A DNA stretch of 64,000 nucleotides from an uncultured Veillonellaceae bacterium (GCA_963805085.1 CAWDTA010000004.1:32001-96000), one strand, 5' to 3'; shown: positions 158 to 9,985, numbered from the stretch's first letter. The notes: generated by a model from the letters alone, not told the origin. Numbers and translations: made by a program.

Positions 158-1003
158 ATGATCCAGGATATCGGGCCAAAAATATTCAATAATAATTTTA
201 AGCATCAAAAAGCCAAAGTATCTGATGTTTTCCTTTCATATCAGGGAGATACAGTTCTAATAAAAGAAGATAAAGACAAGCTGTGGTACCCGTCTTTTGC
301 CGATTTTCAAGAAAAGTATCCTTCGCTTATAGAGAAAGCACAGTTTCTTTTCACCATCAATGAAATTAATTACTATCTGGCAGATGAACAGGGTCTTGAT
401 TCCGTGGAAGGCTGGATCTATGTAAATGTCCGCCGCTTCCGTTCAGAACCAAAATATTGGCGTTCCTTTGCCGGTGCTGTCGGCTGGCAACTAAACCGCT
501 GGTATGCAGATCATAAATTTTGCAGCAAATGCAAGAATCCTTTGAAAAAATCCGATAAAGAGCGCATGCTCTATTGTGACAGCTGCAATCTTCAGATCTA
601 CCCTAAAATTTCACCAGCAGTCATTGTCGGTGTCTATGATAAAAGCCGTCTCCTTTTAACAAAATATGCTGGAAGAGAACACGTTCGTCATGCACTGATT
701 GCCGGTTTTGCGGAAATCGGAGAAAGCCTCGAACAAACAGTTCATCGTGAAGTACTGGAAGAAGCCGGGCTGAAAGTAAAAAAACTGAAATTTTACAAAA
801 GCCAACCGTGGCCGTTTACAGATACTCTCCTTGCCGGATTTTATGCCGAGCTCGACGGCGATGATGCTATCACACTGGAAACCGATGAGCTTGCACTGGG
901 CATCTGGGTAGAGCGGGAAAACATTCCAATAGAAGACGAACTGCAAATGAGTCTGACCAGCGAAATGATATCCGCCTTCAAAAAAAATGAATTTAATTTA
1001 TAG
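158..1003 (+). CDS. nudC: NAD(+) diphosphatase, NudC family
   Basis: Zn ribbon CSKC..CDSC, Nudix box GFAEIGESLEQTVHREVLEEAG, SQPWPF motif; ATG at 158 follows GAGGGTG. Confidence 0.9.
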   Translation: MIQDIGPKIFNNNFKHQKAKVSDVFLSYQGDTVLIKEDKDKLWYPSFADFQEKYPSLIEKAQFLFTINEINYYLADEQGLDSVEGWIYVNVRRFRSEPKYWRSFAGAVGWQLNRWYADHKFCSKCKNPLKKSDKERMLYCDSCNLQIYPKISPAVIVGVYDKSRLLLTKYAGREHVRHALIAGFAEIGESLEQTVHREVLEEAGLKVKKLKFYKSQPWPFTDTLLAGFYAELDGDDAITLETDELALGIWVERENIPIEDELQMSLTSEMISAFKKNEFNL

Positions 1004-1015
1004 GGTTCTTAATAC

Positions 1016-1049
1016 AAAAGCGACGACTCCTTTCGGAATCGTCGCTTTT
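1016..1049. terminator. Bidirectional intrinsic terminator (copy 1 of the argH terminator)
   Basis: AAAAGCGACGA-ctcctttcggaa-TCGTCGCTTTT hairpin between convergent nudC and argH fragment. Confidence 0.85.
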
Positions 1050-1053
1050 ATTA

Positions 1054-1297
1054 TTATTTGACTTCTACAACTTTTTCATTATAAGCATCAATCACTGCTT
1101 GATGTTTATCCATGATTTTCTCAGCAGTTTTTAAGTTTTGTTCTACTTGTTTGTAGGATGTCCCACCAAATGAATTGCGGTTTTCTACGCAGGTTTCGGC
1201 TTTGATTACTTCTAGGATATCGGCTTCAAATAATGGTGAGAATTGTTTAAATTCCTCTAGGGATAAATCCATCATCCATTTATTGTTTTCAATGCAA
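1054..1297 (-). pseudogene. argH: Duplicated 3' fragment of argH (last ~80 codons)
   Basis: Aligns without gaps to 2808-3051 (offset 1754); 17 substitutions by manual count; no 5' part of the gene. Confidence 0.95.
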
Positions 1298-1299
1298 CA

Positions 1300-1455
1300 G
1301 GTACAAGGGGACAGGTTATTTGTCCCACACTCATTTTTTGATCATCAGAAGTTTTGAATATTCCCTATTCTCTTTATAACATTGAAATAACTCTAACTTA
1401 TAACCTAAATAAATTCCGTTTTACAGGGGATAGGAAACCTGTCCCCTTATTCCCA
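1300..1455. repeat. REP-like inverted doublet of GGGACAGG-type palindromes
   Basis: AAGGGGACAGGTTatttGTCCC on + at ~1305-1326 and AAGGGGACAGGTTtcctATCCCC on - at ~1427-1449; shared 13-mer in inverted orientation. Confidence 0.6.
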
Positions 1456-1609
1456 ACTATCTAACTAGGATTTTTACTAATCTTTTTATTTCTAAATTAC
1501 GGATAAGCAATACCTATTTAACATTATAAACTTATTTCTCAAAAATACACAAAACTCCTACCAAACCAACAAAGCACAGCAAAAACAAACAAATTTATCC
1601 AATATTTAA

Positions 1610-1638
1610 GAAGGAAATATTATAGAAAGGCAGAATAT
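1610..1638 (+). promoter_or_regulatory. Sigma-H-like promoter of the HNH gene
   Basis: GAAGGAAAT-11 nt-GCAGAATAT matches the Bacillus SigH consensus RNAGGAWWW-N11/12-RNNGAATWW. Confidence 0.5.
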
Positions 1639-1666
1639 GGTATATATTGTGATTGGAGGTAATTAA

Positions 1667-2332
1667 ATGAATATAGTTGAAATGAATTTTGAACTGGTCA
1701 AAGAACTCGAAAACTCTTTAAAAACCGCTATCCGCTATAATAATGGAGATATGATGTATAAGATAGTTACACGTTACCTTGATAAGTATAAAGATCATTA
1801 TAGTTATGATACTATAATACACTACATATATTGGTGTACAAAATTTAAAATAACTACTTTAAATCGCATTTTGGGTTATACTGGAGATAATCGTACATAC
1901 TTAATAGATCAAGGGCTGATTGAAAAACAAATTTATAAAAGCAAATGTAATATATGTGGAAAAAATCAAAAAATTGAGGTTAGTAGCAGAAGAGAATTAG
2001 GGGACTTAAAAAGGAATCCTAAAACTTATATATGTAACGAGTGTGAATTAGACATAGATGCATGCAGTAATTTTTACTATGAATATTCAAAAAACAAAAA
2101 TTTGAAAAGAAAAGAAATTAACGAAAACTTTTACAATGATTATCTGAGAAGTGAGCATTGGAAAAAAGTTCGGTCTGAGGCATTAACTGCCTCAGACAAT
2201 AAATGTCTATTATGTTCATCCAAGCAAGATCTTAATGTGCATCATAAAACTCATGCTACTATAAGAAAAGAATCTTTAAATGATTTAATAGTACTTTGTG
2301 ATACATGCCATCGTAAACATCATTTTGGGTGA
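1667..2332 (+). CDS. Zn-ribbon plus C-terminal HNH endonuclease domain protein
   Basis: CNIC..CNEC pair, then YLRSEHWKKVR..CLLC..LNVHH..LIVLCDTCHRKHH; RBS GGAGGT; AT-rich. Confidence 0.8.
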   Translation: MNIVEMNFELVKELENSLKTAIRYNNGDMMYKIVTRYLDKYKDHYSYDTIIHYIYWCTKFKITTLNRILGYTGDNRTYLIDQGLIEKQIYKSKCNICGKNQKIEVSSRRELGDLKRNPKTYICNECELDIDACSNFYYEYSKNKNLKRKEINENFYNDYLRSEHWKKVRSEALTASDNKCLLCSSKQDLNVHHKTHATIRKESLNDLIVLCDTCHRKHHFG

Positions 2333-2416
2333 AAACATCCAAATTGGGTAGCCCAGACAATTTTGTGTAAATTGAGTTTCCTTTTTAATCAAATAGTGCC
2401 ACATTACTATTTATCC

Positions 2417-2446
2417 TTGCAATATTTTGACATTATTTGTTATAAT
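2417..2446 (+). promoter_or_regulatory. Sigma-A promoter of putative toxin mRNA
   Basis: TTGCAA-18 nt-TATAAT with extended -10 TGnTATAAT. Confidence 0.7.
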
Positions 2447-2507
2447 GCAAATAGGTGCTACGATAACGGCAGGCGGTTCACCTTCCCCACTGAAATGGGG
2501 TGAGCAT

Positions 2508-2579
2508 ATGGGAACTATGGAGCTTTATGTATTACTAATACTAGCTACAGGTTACATTATCGCAATAAAAAAAAGATAA
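2508..2579 (+). CDS. Putative type I toxin, 23-aa hydrophobic peptide MGTMELYVLLILATGYIIAIKKR
   Basis: Translated by hand (below ORF-track cutoff); one hydrophobic segment plus basic tail; SD GGGGTGA held in CCCCA/TGGGG hairpin. Confidence 0.75.
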   Translation: MGTMELYVLLILATGYIIAIKKR

Positions 2580-2671
2580 CCGCCCCATCCAGCAAGATTA
2601 GCGGTTAAACTCTTTTGATTTAATCTCTATATTTTTGTCAGGTGAACCGTCTATCGGTAGCACCTTTTATA
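2567..2671 (-). ncRNA. Putative cis-antisense antitoxin RNA (~105 nt)
   Basis: Minus-strand TTGACA-17-TATGAT promoter; ends in TAACCGC/GCGGTTA stem followed by U-run; overlaps 3' end of toxin mRNA. Confidence 0.7.
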
Positions 2672-2677
2672 TTGTTT

Positions 2678-2706
2678 ATCATAAACCAAATGTTATACAT
2701 TGTCAA
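2678..2706 (-). promoter_or_regulatory. Sigma-A promoter of antisense RNA
   Basis: TTGACA (2706-2701), 17-nt spacer, TATGAT (2683-2678). Confidence 0.7.
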
Positions 2707-2769
2707 CAGCTGGGAGCAACACTTTCAGGCTATTTCTTAGAATACAAAGAGTAGAAAAAATCTTATAAC

Positions 2770-2806
2770 AAAAGCGACGACTCCTTTCGGAATCGTCGCT
2801 CTTTTT
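2770..2806 (-). terminator. arg operon terminator (copy 2)
   Basis: Same AGCGACGA/TCGTCGCT hairpin as 1016-1049, right after the argH stop. Confidence 0.85.
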
Positions 2807-2807
2807 A

Positions 2808-4232
2808 TTATTTCACTTCTACAACTTTTTCATTATAAGCATCAATCACAGCTTGATGTTTACCCATGATTTCCTCAGCAGTTTTTAAGTTTTGTTCTAC
2901 TTGTTTGTAGGAAGTACCACCAAAGGAATTGCGATTTTCAACGCAGGTTTCTGCTTTGATTGCTTCTAAGATATCGGCTTCAAATAATGGCGAGAATTGT
3001 TTAAATTCTTCTAAGGATAAATCCAGCAGCCATTTATTGTTTTCAATGCAATAGTGAACGCTTTTACCTGATACTTCATGGGCTTGTCTAAATGGCAAGC
3101 CTTTTTTCACGAGGTAATCTGCTAAATCTGTTGCATTGGAGAAATCTTCTCTGACTGCCGATAACATGACATCTTTGTTTACACGCATTGCTTTGATCAT
3201 TTGCGCATAGACACTTAGGCTGAATTTTACCGTATCAATGGTATCAAACAAGCCTTCTTTATCTTCTTGTAAATCCTTATTATAGGCAAGTGGTAAACCT
3301 TTTGCTGTCGTAAGCATCGCCATAAGATGACCGATTACCCGGCCAGTTTTACCTCTAACAAGCTCAGACACATCAGGATTTTTCTTTTGTGGCATCATAC
3401 TTGAACCAGTGCAATGTGCATCGTCAAGTTCAACAAAAGAAAATTCTTTTGAACACCATAAAATAATTTCTTCACTGATACGGCTAAGGTGCATCATTAA
3501 GATAGATGCAAAGGATAAAAATTCTAAGATATAGTCGCGATCACTTACAGCGTCTAAGCTATTGTTATATACCGCACCAAAGTTTAACTGCTCCGCTACA
3601 AAATGTCTATCGATAGGAAATGTCGTACCAGCAAGTGCGCCAGCTCCTAACGGCATGATATCAGCGCGTTCATAAACCCCTTGCAAACGAGAAAAATCTC
3701 GGTTTAGCATGGAGAAGTAGGCAAGTAAATGATGCGAGAATAAAATAGGTTGGGCACGTTGTAAGTGCGTGTAGCCTGGCATGATCACATCAGAATTCTT
3801 TTCTGCAGTCTCTACCAAGGCTTTTTCCATATCTAGAAGAATCTTTGCGATATTGGCCACTTCTTTACGTACATACATGTGGGTATCAAGGGCAACTTGG
3901 TCGTTACGGCTACGCGCGGTATGAAGTCTACCGCCTGCTTCGCCGATGCGATCTGTTAAGCGTTTTTCAATATTCATATGGATATCTTCGAGGGCAACTT
4001 CAAAAGAGAAGTTGCCTGCCTCAATATCGGCTAATATGCCTTTTAATCCATCAACGATTGCGTCTTTATCTTGCTCGGAGATAATACCGCACTTTGCAAG
4101 CATGGTTGCATGGGCGATAGAACCCGTGATATCTTCATGATACATACGTTTATCAAACGAGATGGACGCTTGGAATTCGTTGATCATTTCATCGGTTGTT
4201 TTTGAAAATCTTCCCCCCCAGAGTTTGCCCAT
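2808..4232 (-). CDS. argH: Argininosuccinate lyase
   Basis: KLWGGRF N-terminus, [11 protein letters not shown] signature. Confidence 0.98.
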
Positions 4233-6604: not shown

Positions 6605-7798
6605 TTACTGATTTTTTTCTAATGTTTTATCTAAAATTGTAATCAATTCATCGACATTGTCTTTATTAATAATGAGCGGTGGTACAAAACGAAGTACAGT
6701 TTCAGCCGTACAATTGATAATTGCTCCAGCTTCTAGGCATTCGTTCACAATTTGACGACCTGGTTTAGTAAGCTGCATCCCGATGATCAAGCCCATGCCA
6801 CGCACCTCTGTAATAAGTGCAGGATATTTTTCCTGTAAAGCTTTAAGTTTTGTTGTTAAATATGCACCAATTGCTTTCGTATTGGAAAGCAGATGTTCAC
6901 TTTCAATCGTATCTAGCGTTACATTTGCCGCTGCACAAGCCAGTGGATTACCGCCAAATGTAGATCCATGATCACCAGCGTGGAAAACAGCTGCCACTTT
7001 ATTGCTTGCAATAAATGCGCCGATTGCTACCCCGCCTGCTAAGCCTTTGGCAAGGGTCACGATATCTGGCTTAATCCCAAATTGTTCATAAGCAAACATC
7101 GTACCAGTTCTGCCAATACCAGTTTGGATTTCGTCTAAGATTAAAAGCGCACCGTATTGATTACAAAGTGCACGAACTTTTTTGAGGTAATCTTGTTCTG
7201 GAATATTTACGCCGCCTTCACCTTGAATCGGTTCTAGCATAACTGCACAAGTTTTTTCGCTCATCATCGCGGTGAGAGCATCGATATCGTTGTAGTCTAC
7301 ATATTTAAAATCAGCTGGCAATGGATCAAAACCTTTTTGGTATTTCGGTTGTGCCGTTGCTGTTAGTGTAGCAAGGGTACGACCATGAAAACCATGCCAC
7401 GCTGTGATTATTTCCGATTTATCTGGGCTGATATTATGCGCATATTTACGCGCTAATTTGATTGCTCCTTCATTTGCTTCTGCACCAGAATTGCCTAAAA
7501 AAGCTTTTCCTAGACCACTAAGCTTTACAAGCTTTTCAGCTAATGTCGCTTGCGCTTCTGTGTAATAAAGATTGGAACAATGAATTACTTTACCGGCTTG
7601 CTCAGCAATTGCTTTAACAAGTGCAGGATGCGCATGCCCCAATACATTTACCGCAATACCGCCTAGATAATCAATATATTTTTTGCCGTCTGTATCGTAT
7701 ACATATGGCCCTTCACCATGGGAAATTACCATTTGATATCTGGCAAAGACCGGCATATAGTAGTCTTTATCTTTTTGATAAATTTCTTCATTTGTCAT
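6605..7798 (-). CDS. argD: Acetylornithine aminotransferase
   Basis: Class III PLP aminotransferase (DEIQTGIGRTG, TLAKGL) in arg operon. Confidence 0.95.
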   Translation of the reverse strand: MTNEEIYQKDKDYYMPVFARYQMVISHGEGPYVYDTDGKKYIDYLGGIAVNVLGHAHPALVKAIAEQAGKVIHCSNLYYTEAQATLAEKLVKLSGLGKAFLGNSGAEANEGAIKLARKYAHNISPDKSEIITAWHGFHGRTLATLTATAQPKYQKGFDPLPADFKYVDYNDIDALTAMMSEKTCAVMLEPIQGEGGVNIPEQDYLKKVRALCNQYGALLILDEIQTGIGRTGTMFAYEQFGIKPDIVTLAKGLAGGVAIGAFIASNKVAAVFHAGDHGSTFGGNPLACAAANVTLDTIESEHLLSNTKAIGAYLTTKLKALQEKYPALITEVRGMGLIIGMQLTKPGRQIVNECLEAGAIINCTAETVLRFVPPLIINKDNVDELITILDKTLEKNQ

Positions 7799-7812
7799 TT
7801 TAAGTGACCTCC

Positions 7813-8700
7813 TTATTTTACAACTTGCGTACCAATTCCTTGTGGTGTAAACACTTCTAAAATTAAGGAATGTGGTTGACGTCCATCAATGATATGGGTT
7901 TTCCCTGTCCCAGCCTCTAGTGAACTTAAGCAAGCTTCCACTTTTGGAATCATCCCACCAGCGATAGTGCCAGCTTCAATCATTTTACGAGCATCGACTT
8001 GTTTTAACGACGAAATAAACGTGCTCTTATCGTTATAATCGCCGTAGATACCTTCGATATCCGTAAGGAGTAACAATTTTTCCGCTTTTAACGCCCCAGC
8101 AACTTCTGCTGCAACGTAGTCAGCATTGATATTGAAACTTTCATTATTTTGACCAACACCGATTGGCGCGATGACTGGAATATAATCTTTATCTAATAAA
8201 TCATTTAAAATATTGGTATTAATCTTCGTAACCTCACCCACAAAACCAATATCAACCGTGCGGGTTGTACCATTTTCATGAACAACAGCATATTTTTTCT
8301 TGGCTTTGATTAATTCTGCATCTTTACCACTTAAACCGACAGCTTTCACACCAGCATGGTTGAGCAGACTCACGATTTCTGTATTGATCTTACCAACGAG
8401 CACCATCTCAGCCAGTTCCGCTGTTTCTTTATCAGTAACTCGCAGACCACTAACAAATTCACTCTGTTTGCCAATCTTTTTCAAGAAATTAGTAATATCA
8501 GGGCCGCCACCATGGACTACAACTGGTCGCATCCCAACGTATTTCATCAGCACGATATCTTGAATTACTTGCTCTTTTAATTCGTGACTAACCATAGCAT
8601 TACCGCCGTATTTTATTACAATCGTTTTGCCATAAAATTCTTGTATATAAGGCAGTGCTTCTACCAATATGCTCGCTTTATCAGCCGGCGTAAAACTCAT
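7813..8700 (-). CDS. argB: Acetylglutamate kinase
   Basis: IKYGGNAM, HGGGP, GGMIPK motifs. Confidence 0.97.
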   Translation of the reverse strand: MSFTPADKASILVEALPYIQEFYGKTIVIKYGGNAMVSHELKEQVIQDIVLMKYVGMRPVVVHGGGPDITNFLKKIGKQSEFVSGLRVTDKETAELAEMVLVGKINTEIVSLLNHAGVKAVGLSGKDAELIKAKKKYAVVHENGTTRTVDIGFVGEVTKINTNILNDLLDKDYIPVIAPIGVGQNNESFNINADYVAAEVAGALKAEKLLLLTDIEGIYGDYNDKSTFISSLKQVDARKMIEAGTIAGGMIPKVEACLSSLEAGTGKTHIIDGRQPHSLILEVFTPQGIGTQVVK

Positions 8701-8779
8701 CGACATAACCTCCAAAATATCAAGTAAGACTGCTACAAAATGCTTTGTAACAGTCCTATTGTCTTCTATAAACTAGTCA

Positions 8780-9985
8780 TCAGGTGTGATATTCACCATT
8801 GATTTTCACGTATTCATAGGATAAATCACAAGTCCAAACCGTCGCTTTATCTTCACCTAAACCTAGGTTAATATTCACGGTAATATCATGTTCTTCCATG
8901 ATTGCTTTTAGCGCTTCTTCATCGTAAGCTGCGCCCATTCCTTTATCAAAGACAACAACATCATTTAATGACACAATTGTTTTTTCAGGAACCATTTGCG
9001 CGCCAGCATAACCAACTGCGCAGATAATTCTACCCCAATTTGCATCTTGACCAAAGAAAGCTGTTTTTACAAGTGGTGATTTGGCAACGCTCATTGCAAC
9101 TTTTTTTGCATCTTCAAAGCTCGTTGCCCCGGTTACATTCACTTCTAAAAATTTAGTTGCGCCTTCACCATCACGCGCAACCAATTGTGCAAGACCAACG
9201 CAAACTTTTTCTAGTGCTTTTACGAATTTTTCATATTCAGCATTTTCTTCAGTAATCATAGCATTTTCAGCCATGCCATTTGCAAGGACAAGCACCATAT
9301 CATTGGTACTGGTATCACCATCAACTGAAACCATATTGAAAGAAATGCCAACGCATTTTGAAAGTGCTTTTTGTAATAAATCATGGCTGATTGCTGCATC
9401 CGTCGTGATGAAGCAAAGCATCGTTGCCATATTCGGGTGAATCATTCCTGATCCTTTAGCAATACCACCAATACTTACTGTTTTTCCGCCAAGTTCAAAG
9501 CTAAATGAACCTGCTTTTTGATAAGTATCTGTCGTTACAATCGCTTTACTTGCAGCATCACTACCATTCTCATTAAGCGCCGCTACCGCCAATTTGATCC
9601 CAGCTTCAATTTTATTCATTGGTAAAGTTTGCCCAATGATTCCAGTAGAAGCAACAAATACATCGCCTGCATCGATGCCAAGTTCTTTCGCTGTCAAAGC
9701 TGCCATTGCCTTCGCATCTTTCATTCCTTGCTCACCAGTACAAGCATTGGCACAGCCAGCATTGACTACAATTGCATGAGCCGTTCCTTTTTTAACAACA
9801 TCTTTAGAAACGAAAACTGGTGCTGCAGCAACTAAATTTGTAGTAAATGTACCAGCAACCGTCGCTGCTTTTTCTGTAAAGATCACAGCCATATCATCTT
9901 TACCACTTTTTTTCACGCCAGCTTTAATACCGCTAGCTTTAAATCCTTTTGCAAGTGTAACACCTGCATTATTTTCTTTAAACAC
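8780..9985 (-). CDS. argJ: Bifunctional ornithine acetyltransferase/N-acetylglutamate synthase
   Basis: KGSGMIHPNMATML, DGDTSTND, DGEGATK motifs. Confidence 0.97.
   Translation of the reverse strand: MFKENNAGVTLAKGFKASGIKAGVKKSGKDDMAVIFTEKAATVAGTFTTNLVAAAPVFVSKDVVKKGTAHAIVVNAGCANACTGEQGMKDAKAMAALTAKELGIDAGDVFVASTGIIGQTLPMNKIEAGIKLAVAALNENGSDAASKAIVTTDTYQKAGSFSFELGGKTVSIGGIAKGSGMIHPNMATMLCFITTDAAISHDLLQKALSKCVGISFNMVSVDGDTSTNDMVLVLANGMAENAMITEENAEYEKFVKALEKVCVGLAQLVARDGEGATKFLEVNVTGATSFEDAKKVAMSVAKSPLVKTAFFGQDANWGRIICAVGYAGAQMVPEKTIVSLNDVVVFDKGMGAAYDEEALKAIMEEHDITVNINLGLGEDKATVWTCDLSYEYVKINGEYHT

Follow-up and report, generated by a model that had tools for sequence, protein, structure and literature searches.

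We analyzed a 64,000-nt stretch of DNA from an uncultured Veillonellaceae bacterium (GCA_963805085.1, CAWDTA010000004.1; G000:C4:32001-96000, hereafter the window) and focused on the space between nudC and argH, in which the 3′ end of argH is present twice. The assembly, designated G000, consists of five contigs and 4.2 Mb (83% complete, 6% contamination), and its one named relative, G001, is a metagenome-assembled genome of a Massilibacillus sp. of the same genus. The left flank is formed by a nudC-like NADH pyrophosphatase gene (positions 125–1003, + strand), an open reading frame (ORF) of 292 amino acids (aa) with NUDIX and Zn_ribbon_NUD domains. The intact argH (2808–4232, – strand; 474 aa, Lyase_1 and ASL_C2 domains) faces it in convergent orientation and encodes a protein 98% identical to ArgH of the metagenome locus L049.

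Positions 1007–1300 and 2761–3054 form an ungapped direct repeat of 294 nt, the copies of which are 1754 bp apart and 92.5% identical (self-BLAST, E = 1e-121); a repeat finder applied to the window returned one family, with two copies of 294 nt at 93% identity. The first copy (1007–1300) contains a terminator hairpin (1016–1048) and a displaced argH tail, tail A (1054–1300, – strand), which comprises the last 82 codons of an argH allele without a gene body, and in which ASL_C2 was matched at 26.2 bits, just under the cut-off. The second copy (2761–3054) contains the terminator at 2770–2802 and the in-use tail, tail B, as part of the working argH gene. An initial annotation of this DNA had reported the direct repeat of the argH end and terminator, 1754 bp apart, which was confirmed and extended to 294 nt. 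It had also described the DNA between the copies as a doublet resembling repetitive extragenic palindromic (REP) sequences, an HNH gene and a type I toxin–antitoxin (TA)-like locus, without a recombinase gene. These identities were borne out: a REPIN-like doublet with the arms REP-L and REP-R, a type I TA-like module and an intact HNH gene of the phage type lie between the repeats, and ORF calls and a domain scan of the 1.75-kb stretch revealed no recombinase ORF.

Divergence of the two argH 3′ ends

We compared the two repeat copies and found 22 differences, consisting of 18 differing codons and four non-coding sites (1012, 1013, 1047 and 1050). Twelve of the differing codons are synonymous and six are non-synonymous. 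The 17 differing sites given in the initial annotation (12 synonymous and five non-synonymous) are right for positions 1054–1297, and the eighteenth codon is the boundary codon at 1298, which differs between the tails (TGT versus TAT). By the Nei–Gojobori method, the synonymous divergence (dS) between tails A and B was 0.315 and the non-synonymous divergence (dN) 0.031; the resulting dN/dS of 0.10 indicates that both tails diverged under coding selection. This coding-type divergence in turn suggests that two alleles from different lineages were brought together, in agreement with the earlier view that two functional alleles had been joined. Indeed, the A–B divergence resembles that of orthologues from different species; for comparison, the dS between tail B and the L049 tail was 0.345, and that between the argH body of B and L049 was 0.261. 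Five amino-acid changes are private to tail A when it is compared with B, L049, G001 and a further relative, G004, and tail A is therefore regarded as a relic in which decay has begun.

The pairwise differences among B, G001 and L049 were 6–8%, and those between A and these three were 8–10%. The identity to G001 was 91.5% for A and 94.0% for B, and that to L049 was 90.2% and 91.9%, respectively. Over 199 nt (G001 without the last 47 nt), 17 differences from G001 were counted for A and 12 for B. The synonymous differences from G001 numbered 9.5 for A and 8.5 for B, and those from L049 numbered 13 for both tails. In a tree and distance test for the native tail, again without the last 47 nt of G001, A, B, G001 and L049 were nearly equidistant. 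The comparison of the tails with relatives thus spoke against the initial annotation, in that the displaced tail A was not closer to them than tail B, and on these distances neither tail appears to be nameable as the resident allele.

Additional argH tails and variable nudC–argH spacers

A second nudC (nudC', C4:23153-24123; 94% identical) was found 8.9 kb upstream of the nudC of the window, and a third argH tail (tail C, C4:27100-27331; 82–84% identical) is fused to a promoter-less copy of the TA module, TA3. The order upstream on C4 is nudC', a broken element of the insertion sequence (IS) family IS3, a split rsmH-like gene, and tail C with TA3; small ORFs, an ion channel gene and a ThrE exporter gene follow, and then the nudC of the window. 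Between nudC' and tail C (C4:24233-26845), the IS3-family transposase is broken into three ORF pieces, next to which lies the rsmH (MraW)-like methyltransferase gene, split in two.

Relatives differed in the content of the nudC–argH spacer. For example, in G004 (seven contigs, 97% complete), argH is ~89% identical and has a single tail at argH, and the spacer, 346 nt in length, contains a different small hydrophobic ORF. This ORF (L033:6413-6760), with a strong Shine–Dalgarno sequence and flanking hairpins, appears to be a further type I toxin-like module in the nudC–argH position. In addition, G004 contains a second nudC, as well as an extra argH tail that neighbors a RES-domain gene and a phosphotransferase system (PTS)/GH1 operon. 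Two ORFs directly adjoin this extra tail (L033:14414-16323), one of 274 aa that belongs to no known family and one of 362 aa with a RES domain; they are probably a toxin–antitoxin pair, and PADLOC gave no hit for the two ORFs. L049 likewise has a single argH tail, and a segment bounded by REPs, with an ORF of 198 aa, fills its entire spacer: REP-L begins immediately after the stop codon of nudC, and REP-R reaches up to the argH terminator. The 198-aa ORF (L049:7219-7815), enclosed by the two REP arms and without a Pfam or PADLOC hit, appears to be a REP-bounded passenger gene. The same joint of nudC to REP-L was observed after nudC' in G000 and in the locus L050, and contigs of relatives from the public runs X2 and X4 link the nudC end to TA sequence.

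As the initial annotation had supposed, 'empty' sites therefore exist, that is, relatives without the HNH gene and without the tail duplication: at argH, both L049 and G004 have just one tail, with a different spacer content. Among 63 metagenome loci, argH was located beside the nudC relative only in L049, which indicates that the nudC–argH adjacency is confined to a small clade. Since the spacer content differed in every relative seen, the spacer can be regarded as a hot spot. No intact element was found at the argH site in 41 relatives or in the 63 metagenome loci.

We further used the 101 C-terminal residues of ArgH as a query against 401 genomes of the class. A match was obtained in 387 of them, and more than one match was obtained only in G000, G001, G004 and G294 (a third match in G004 was a 44%-identical paralogue, not a fragment). 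G294, which belongs to another family and has a G+C content of 58%, contains a 399-nt argH 3′ fragment that is 92% identical to its own argH, with 20 synonymous and seven non-synonymous differences over the last 100 codons. The fragment is located 3.9 kb downstream of the intact argH (L194:3397-3897 and 7412-8839), and an acyltransferase gene and a GDSL esterase gene lie between them; neither a nuclease nor an integrase was found in this island. A 42-nt internal piece accompanies the 399-nt fragment and is joined at a short repeat. The tail duplication of G294 indicates that the same outcome arises without any HNH gene.

Break points of the tails

The internal tail boundaries, expressed as positions in the window, are 2989 for tail C, 3054 for tail A and 3127 for the second tail of G004, which is a poor fit to one fixed crossover site. 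The cargo next to the tails varies as well as the break points: TA with the channel and exporter genes, HNH with TA, the RES-domain gene with the PTS operon, and the acyltransferase with the esterase. The joint between tail C and TA3 shows a 6-nt microhomology (CAAATA) with a loss of 1 nt and lies at the transcription start of the TA module. The joint of tail A coincides exactly with the outer end of REP-L. The sequence before REP-L is ATAG at the nudC end in nudC' and L050, and a TAA stop codon in L049, and argH at the break of tail A reads CAATAG. A donor nudC end joined to the resident argH at a 4-nt microhomology (ATAG) would give the observed joint of tail A and REP-L, except for one base.

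Proposed serial displacement of the argH 3′ end

The best explanation of these observations, in which we have moderate confidence, is that the argH 3′ end was displaced serially, through one-sided homologous recombination combined with illegitimate recombination, the cargo being passive. The 1.75-kb stretch would then be the most recent layer at a hot spot of recombination between nudC and argH, not a self-contained mobile element, and the three pieces of cargo would be independent selfish elements that collect in the nudC–argH spacer. The discrete, self-propagating mini-island of the initial annotation was not supported: the 1.75-kb unit was seen nowhere else, and REP, HNH and TA sequences are distributed separately.

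We infer the donor, the recombination mechanism and the following order of events. In an earlier event, tail A would have arrived with nudC, the ThrE gene, the channel gene and a TA copy, by which tail C was displaced and a second nudC was brought in. In the latest event, DNA from a related Massilibacillus lineage, comprising part of argH, tail B and the terminator, would have brought along the downstream DNA of the donor, namely, the TA-like module, the phage-type HNH gene and the resident REPIN. This DNA might have been anchored by homologous recombination within or beyond the argH body, and for its far end we envisage an illegitimate joint within the resident argH, at a short microhomology that lies 247 nt ahead of the stop-codon end. 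The working 3′ end would thereby have been replaced, and the resident tail A pushed downstream as a relic. Such a displacement accounts for the lack of a recombinase, for break points and cargo that vary, for the nudC duplicate and the microhomology, for the cases of G004 and G294, and for the orthologue-like divergence of the tails.

Rhs loci were reportedly the subject of work by Jackson et al. in 2009. For effector loci of the Rhs type, of contact-dependent growth inhibition (CDI) systems and of type VI secretion systems (T6SS), a displacement of C-terminal ends has been proposed to occur via homology-facilitated illegitimate recombination (PMC5361080). The argH locus shares with these systems a conserved gene part that acts as an anchor, the replacement of the 3′ end, and an old end orphaned downstream; in both, arrays grow by successive events without a dedicated recombinase, and the copies stem from other strains, not from duplication. 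However, the ends in Rhs, CDI and T6SS loci are variable toxin domains with immunity genes, the turnover of which is thought to be selected, whereas argH is a housekeeping gene, and its tails encode nearly the same peptide. The displacement at argH therefore looks like a by-product of importing the neighboring cargo.

Several observations weigh against serial displacement. First, extra argH tails were found in only four of the 401 class genomes, in a survey that covered argH alone. Second, at sites in the distal 100 nt and the terminator, A and B agree with each other and differ from L049 and G004, which would require later gene conversion between the repeats or parents that were closely related. 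Third, the sliding divergence along argH and argG from G001 is a mosaic, ranging from 0 to 13% per 200 nt, and no clear import boundary was seen along argH and argG in comparison with G001, L049 and G004. Fourth, the donor haplotype, with nudC, REPIN, HNH, TA and argH in this order, was not seen in any sequence. Fifth, the 4-nt microhomology between tail A and REP-L is a reconstruction that needs a donor in which REP-L directly follows the nudC stop, and position 1298 is C where T is expected. Sixth, natural transformation and one-sided recombination are presumed for this organism, with a ComEC gene as their sole trace; this gene lends weak support to the displacement, because the same family was also matched in 10 of 14 control genomes.

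Finally, a fragment of argH on contig C189 of G001 (corresponding to 3048–3203 of the window) starts at the hexamer CAATAG, where tail A ends, and is joined to an unrelated repeat on one side and to an rsmH-like gene on the other. Because independent illegitimate events would seldom share a site, the common break suggests that a cut or crossover occurred at a specific site. It offers the strongest hint of such a process, or it could reflect one older event of which two products have survived in different genomes.

REPIN-like doublet

The REPIN-like doublet (1301–1455) consists of REP-L (~1301–1326) and REP-R (~1427–1453) with a 100-nt spacer, and was detected as an inverted pair (1300–1326 and 1427–1453) by an inverted-repeat search. 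The 13-mer core of the REP sequence occurs 24 times in the 4.2-Mb genome, compared with ~0.13 expected occurrences. Moreover, the inverted ends of the doublet also bound elements of ~855 bp, the 250-aa product of which has a Y1_Tnp domain (E = 2.3e-16). At least five near-full copies of these elements, 95–98% identical and with inverted REP-like ends, are located on C2 and C3 (C2:248188-249111, 548222-549075, 553443-554300 and 801352-802207; C3:14503-15300), and shorter derivatives are found at C5:10674-11094 and in the window (1301–1455). Two transposase copies on C2 are offset by 300,000 bp, which is a coincidence, as their 20-kb surroundings are unrelated.

The doublet is a non-autonomous derivative of the ~855-bp Y1 (IS200-like or RAYT-like) transposase element. 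REPINs and RAYTs have been described previously (PMC3116915, PMC3337134). The doublet resembles them in that two inverted REP hairpins surround a short spacer, the motif is over-represented, and REPs flank a Y1 transposase gene. The transposase here is, however, multicopy, with at least five copies at 95–98% identity, and not a single-copy domesticated gene; given these near-full copies, the element looks more like an active IS than like a single-copy RAYT. An orthologous REP pair is present at the same locus in L049, L050 and G001.

Some REP motifs stand at the end of another repeat. In G000:C2:1382000-1585000, ~50 same-strand copies of a ~120-nt repeat, spaced 0.3–8 kb apart over 200 kb, were observed, and further copies were found at C4:11596-11655, at C4:12984-13138 and on C189 of G001, where one copy adjoins the argH fragment. 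The repeat contains a hairpin and a TGGCAG-N5-TTGCG box, which resembles a sigma-54 promoter, and some copies end in a REP motif.

Type I toxin–antitoxin-like module

The TA-like module (2374–2719) was delimited as the stretch common to three other copies on C4. A toxin promoter is predicted at 2417–2446 on the + strand (TTGCAA, an 18-nt spacer and TATAAT with an upstream TG), followed by a putative toxin, a 23-codon hydrophobic ORF (2508–2579, + strand), which is kept in six of seven aligned copies; the copy TA2 is cut off before the start of the toxin ORF. In the predicted toxin mRNA (2453–2675, + strand), a long helix pairs the 5′ and 3′ ends (minimum free energy –68.8 kcal/mol, z = –5.0), and the Shine–Dalgarno sequence of the 23-codon ORF is sequestered in the predicted fold. 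An antisense RNA unit is predicted on the – strand (2566–2706), with a promoter (TTGACA-17-TATGAT at 2706–2678) that fits the consensus at 11 of 12 positions. The antisense transcript (~2668–2566, ~100 nt) would overlap the 3′ part of the toxin mRNA and end in a hairpin and a U run (z = –3.6).

Four copies of the TA family are located on C4, namely, a complete copy at C4:13127, a truncated copy, a promoter-less copy and that of the window, and further copies were found in G001, G004 and L049. The peptide and the module had no match in Rfam at the gathering score, in Pfam or in NCBIfam, and the TA DNA had no match in plasmids. Over the whole window, no Rfam family was matched at the gathering score; when E-values up to 1 were allowed over positions 1000–3100, four weak matches far below the gathering score were obtained, none of them in the TA stretch. 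We take the module to be comparable to type I loci of Firmicutes such as Fst/RNAII, TxpA/RatA and BsrG/SR4. It shares with such loci a short hydrophobic peptide, a predicted structured mRNA that hides its ribosome-binding site, a predicted convergent small RNA that overlaps the mRNA 3′ end, and a multicopy occurrence in variable regions, but it matches no described family.

The initial annotation had suggested an addiction function, and the module could indeed penalize its loss by recombination between the repeats. This idea is weakened by the complete TA copy 21 kb away on the same contig, the antisense region of which is nearly identical; the copy at C4:13127 might supply the antitoxin RNA in trans.

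The HNH endonuclease gene and the possibility of homing

The HNH endonuclease gene (1667–2332, + strand) encodes 221 aa, with an N-terminal helical domain, a CxxC...CxxC zinc ribbon and a C-terminal HNH domain, and its G+C content is 26–30%, compared with 37–45% in the flanks. The HNH domain corresponds to the C-terminal 70 residues and was matched in Pfam at 17.2 bits (cut-off 21.4) and by HNH families of PHROG with E-values down to 1e-6. The invariant residues of the family are all kept (C94, C97, C123, C126, C180, C183, H192, H193, E202 and D206). An AlphaFold model reached a predicted local distance difference test score (pLDDT) of 85.9, and a Foldseek search with this model aligned the C-terminal part with solved HNH nucleases over 56–78 columns, with weak E-values (best 0.06), and gave no match for the N-terminal domain. 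In NCBIfam, only a sub-threshold match to an IscB HNH domain was obtained (18.5 bits, cut-off 175), and PADLOC gave no hit for the HNH protein or for seven neighboring or related ORFs.

Close relatives of this protein are few. Among ~15 billion proteins, its 90% cluster has three members, that of the window and two near-identical copies on metagenome contigs of ~1.3 kb; a 91% identical copy occurs in another sample, and the next relative beyond the cluster is 59% identical. A full-length copy of this HNH protein was found in none of 400 other genomes of the class and none of 400 other genomes of the phylum, that is, only in G000. Full-length relatives with 24–31% identity are present on viral contigs. 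Of ten such viral loci, six were beside replication genes, one was beside an integrase gene, one was ~2 kb upstream of the large terminase gene, and two had no annotated neighbor. When phage records were searched with tblastn, only the C-terminal 28–32% of the protein was matched, in 25 records.

One alternative to serial displacement is a homing cassette driven by the HNH protein, which would cut a naive argH near the boundary, after which repair from a carrier would copy tail B and the cassette and leave tail A downstream. We regard this as unlikely. It is likewise doubtful that the protein is a site-specific nuclease that cuts naive argH at CAATAG, with the cassette of tail, TA and HNH spreading by double-strand-break repair. 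The possibility is favored by an intact ORF with all invariant residues, a confident model and a C-terminal domain that aligns with HNH nucleases, by the full-length relatives in phage genomes, most of them within replication modules, a common setting for free-standing nuclease genes, by the second junction at the same argH hexamer in G001, and by the 91% identical copy in another sample. The order of gene body, new tail, endonuclease and old tail is also that of atp6 in Allomyces macrogynus and of genes in Glomus sp. (PMC3630166).

Mobile endonuclease ORFs (mORFs) with a carried-over C-terminus are found in fungal mitochondrial genes, namely, in atp6 of A. macrogynus and in atp6, atp9, cox2 and nad3 of Glomus sp. 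Shared with these are the gene core, the inserted C-terminus, the endonuclease ORF and the native C-terminus, and an inserted allele that comes from another lineage. In the mitochondrial cases, however, the ORF either shares the reading frame of the inserted end or follows it immediately, and is co-transcribed with it, the ends are far more diverged (in Glomus, the inserted C-terminals are 64–81% identical to the gene of the relative), and the native end is closer to relatives. In the window, by contrast, the HNH gene is convergent and points toward argH, the TA module lies between it and tail B, so that the two are neither fused nor co-transcribed, tails A and B are 92.5% identical, and the displaced end is not nearer to the relatives.

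The initial annotation had further supposed that the in-use tail is recoded and so resists cleavage. Over the 20 nt that adjoin the boundary on its tail side, however, the in-use allele is identical to the naive L049 allele, and just past the boundary the two differ by one base; the nearest private change of B is at 3026, 28 nt from the boundary. This comparison is a weak test of homing. The supposed tie between HNH-type cargo and the duplication also failed to appear: the other tail duplications have no nuclease gene, tail C included, the extra tail of G004 being beside a RES toxin gene and that of G294 around the acyltransferase and esterase genes. Moreover, no second HNH gene with a duplicated gene end was found, and the full-length HNH was confined to G000 among 401 class and 401 phylum genomes. 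If homing were nevertheless true, the mitochondrial endonuclease ORFs that bring a replacement gene end would have their first counterpart on a bacterial chromosome, the carry-over of gene ends by endonucleases would reach from fungal mitochondria into bacteria, the TA module would penalize loss between the 294-nt repeats, the breakpoint shared with G001 would be a second trace of cutting, and the nuclease and its target would form a simple, testable pairing.

Other explanations of the repeat

Direct repeats of a gene 3′ end and terminator around AT-rich foreign cargo are the usual mark of integrative islands, and the 294-nt repeats of the argH 3′ end and terminator, with AT-rich cargo between them, have this form. 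The locus could thus be the remnant of a site-specific integrative element at the argH 3′ end that has lost its integrase, and that is perhaps mobilized in trans. Integrative islands that rebuild the 3′ end of their target gene also have integrase-less derivatives, the cis-mobilizable elements (CIMEs) of Streptococcus thermophilus. The direct repeats of the target-gene 3′ end, the foreign AT-rich cargo and a possible tandem accretion are shared with such islands; several tandem tails fit accretion at one attachment (att) site, the G001 fragment shares the CAATAG boundary, and argH tails are duplicated in two unrelated lineages. However, no recombinase was found between the repeats or among the ORFs scanned in C4:1-32000 and in the islands of G004 and G294, where the only integrase-core (rve) hits were halves of the broken IS3-type transposase. 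The genome contains three matches to tyrosine recombinases, the nearest of which is a 105-aa fragment (C4:2593-2724) ~30 kb away, serine recombinases not having been searched genome-wide. The repeat is long (294 nt) for such islands, the tail boundaries differ (2989, 3054 and 3127), the joint of tail C is a microhomology with 1-nt loss rather than a clean att junction, and the 41 relatives and 63 metagenome loci hold no intact element at the site. We therefore consider an origin from an integrative element improbable.

A further explanation is an old local tandem duplication of the nudC–argH end, of which one copy was overwritten by homologous import, the cargo having been inserted later and piecewise. 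The G001 joint, at which argH up to 3203 meets the rsmH-like gene, resembles the novel joint of a duplication; the strongly mosaic divergence between G000 and G001 implies frequent homologous imports; A and B have lineage-specific states in common over the distal 100 nt; and both the REPIN and the TA family can clearly arrive independently. Nevertheless, more separate events are needed than for displacement, and neither the pseudo-tails that abut foreign cargo exactly at the break nor the microhomology joint of tail C with a TA copy cut at the transcription start is explained. This history is accordingly rated as quite improbable.

An assembly artefact, in which the haplotypes of two strains were assembled one after the other in this metagenome-assembled genome, is very unlikely: the five contigs of G000 with their completeness and contamination values, the many nearby direct repeats (219 hits at 80–98% identity, with redundancy) and the lack of a public run, RNA runs included, that contains even half of the words of the stretch (best word share 0.12) would allow it, but the joint of tail A and REP-L is a novel junction that is not created by collapsing or concatenating haplotypes, the more complete G004 has the same kind of nudC and argH-tail duplicates, and G294 also has one, and most of the other local repeats sampled (27 pairs) are full-length tandem paralogues or shared domains. 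In the run X3, two 151-nt pieces of the HNH region were matched without mismatch and without a span, and contigs of the runs X1–X4, which derive from relatives, give ambiguous joints because the terminator is repeated.

The 27 sampled pairs thus provided mostly paralogues and shared domains as candidates for other displaced gene ends, and only the filamentous-haemagglutinin locus on C1 resembles a known orphan array. There (G000:C1:6028-14524), a 1476-aa ORF with filamentous-haemagglutinin repeats and a 518-aa ORF 2.5 kb downstream share 950 nt at 93% identity, and the locus looks like a CdiA-type locus with an orphan copy. Another set of repeats is due to CBM3 modules shared by GH48, GH9 and GH44 cellulase genes, which are adjacent at G000:C2:1669685-1677074, each with Big_7 and CBM3, and are followed by a 226-aa CBM3 ORF. 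This cluster is unexpected for the genus label and may bear on the contamination figure of 6%.

Implications of the argH locus

In our judgment, the argH locus represents a recombination scar of a known kind, newly encountered at a housekeeping gene and with three independent selfish elements added to it. If serial displacement is true, one-sided recombination would extend beyond toxin loci and leave orphan 3′ ends behind a housekeeping gene, and the space between convergent core genes would act as a trap for REPINs, type I TA modules and stray phage nucleases. For annotation, this would mean that pseudo-tails and duplicated flanking genes may be mistaken for the att sites of mobile islands, and the interpretation of strain-level variation in metagenome-assembled genomes would also be affected.

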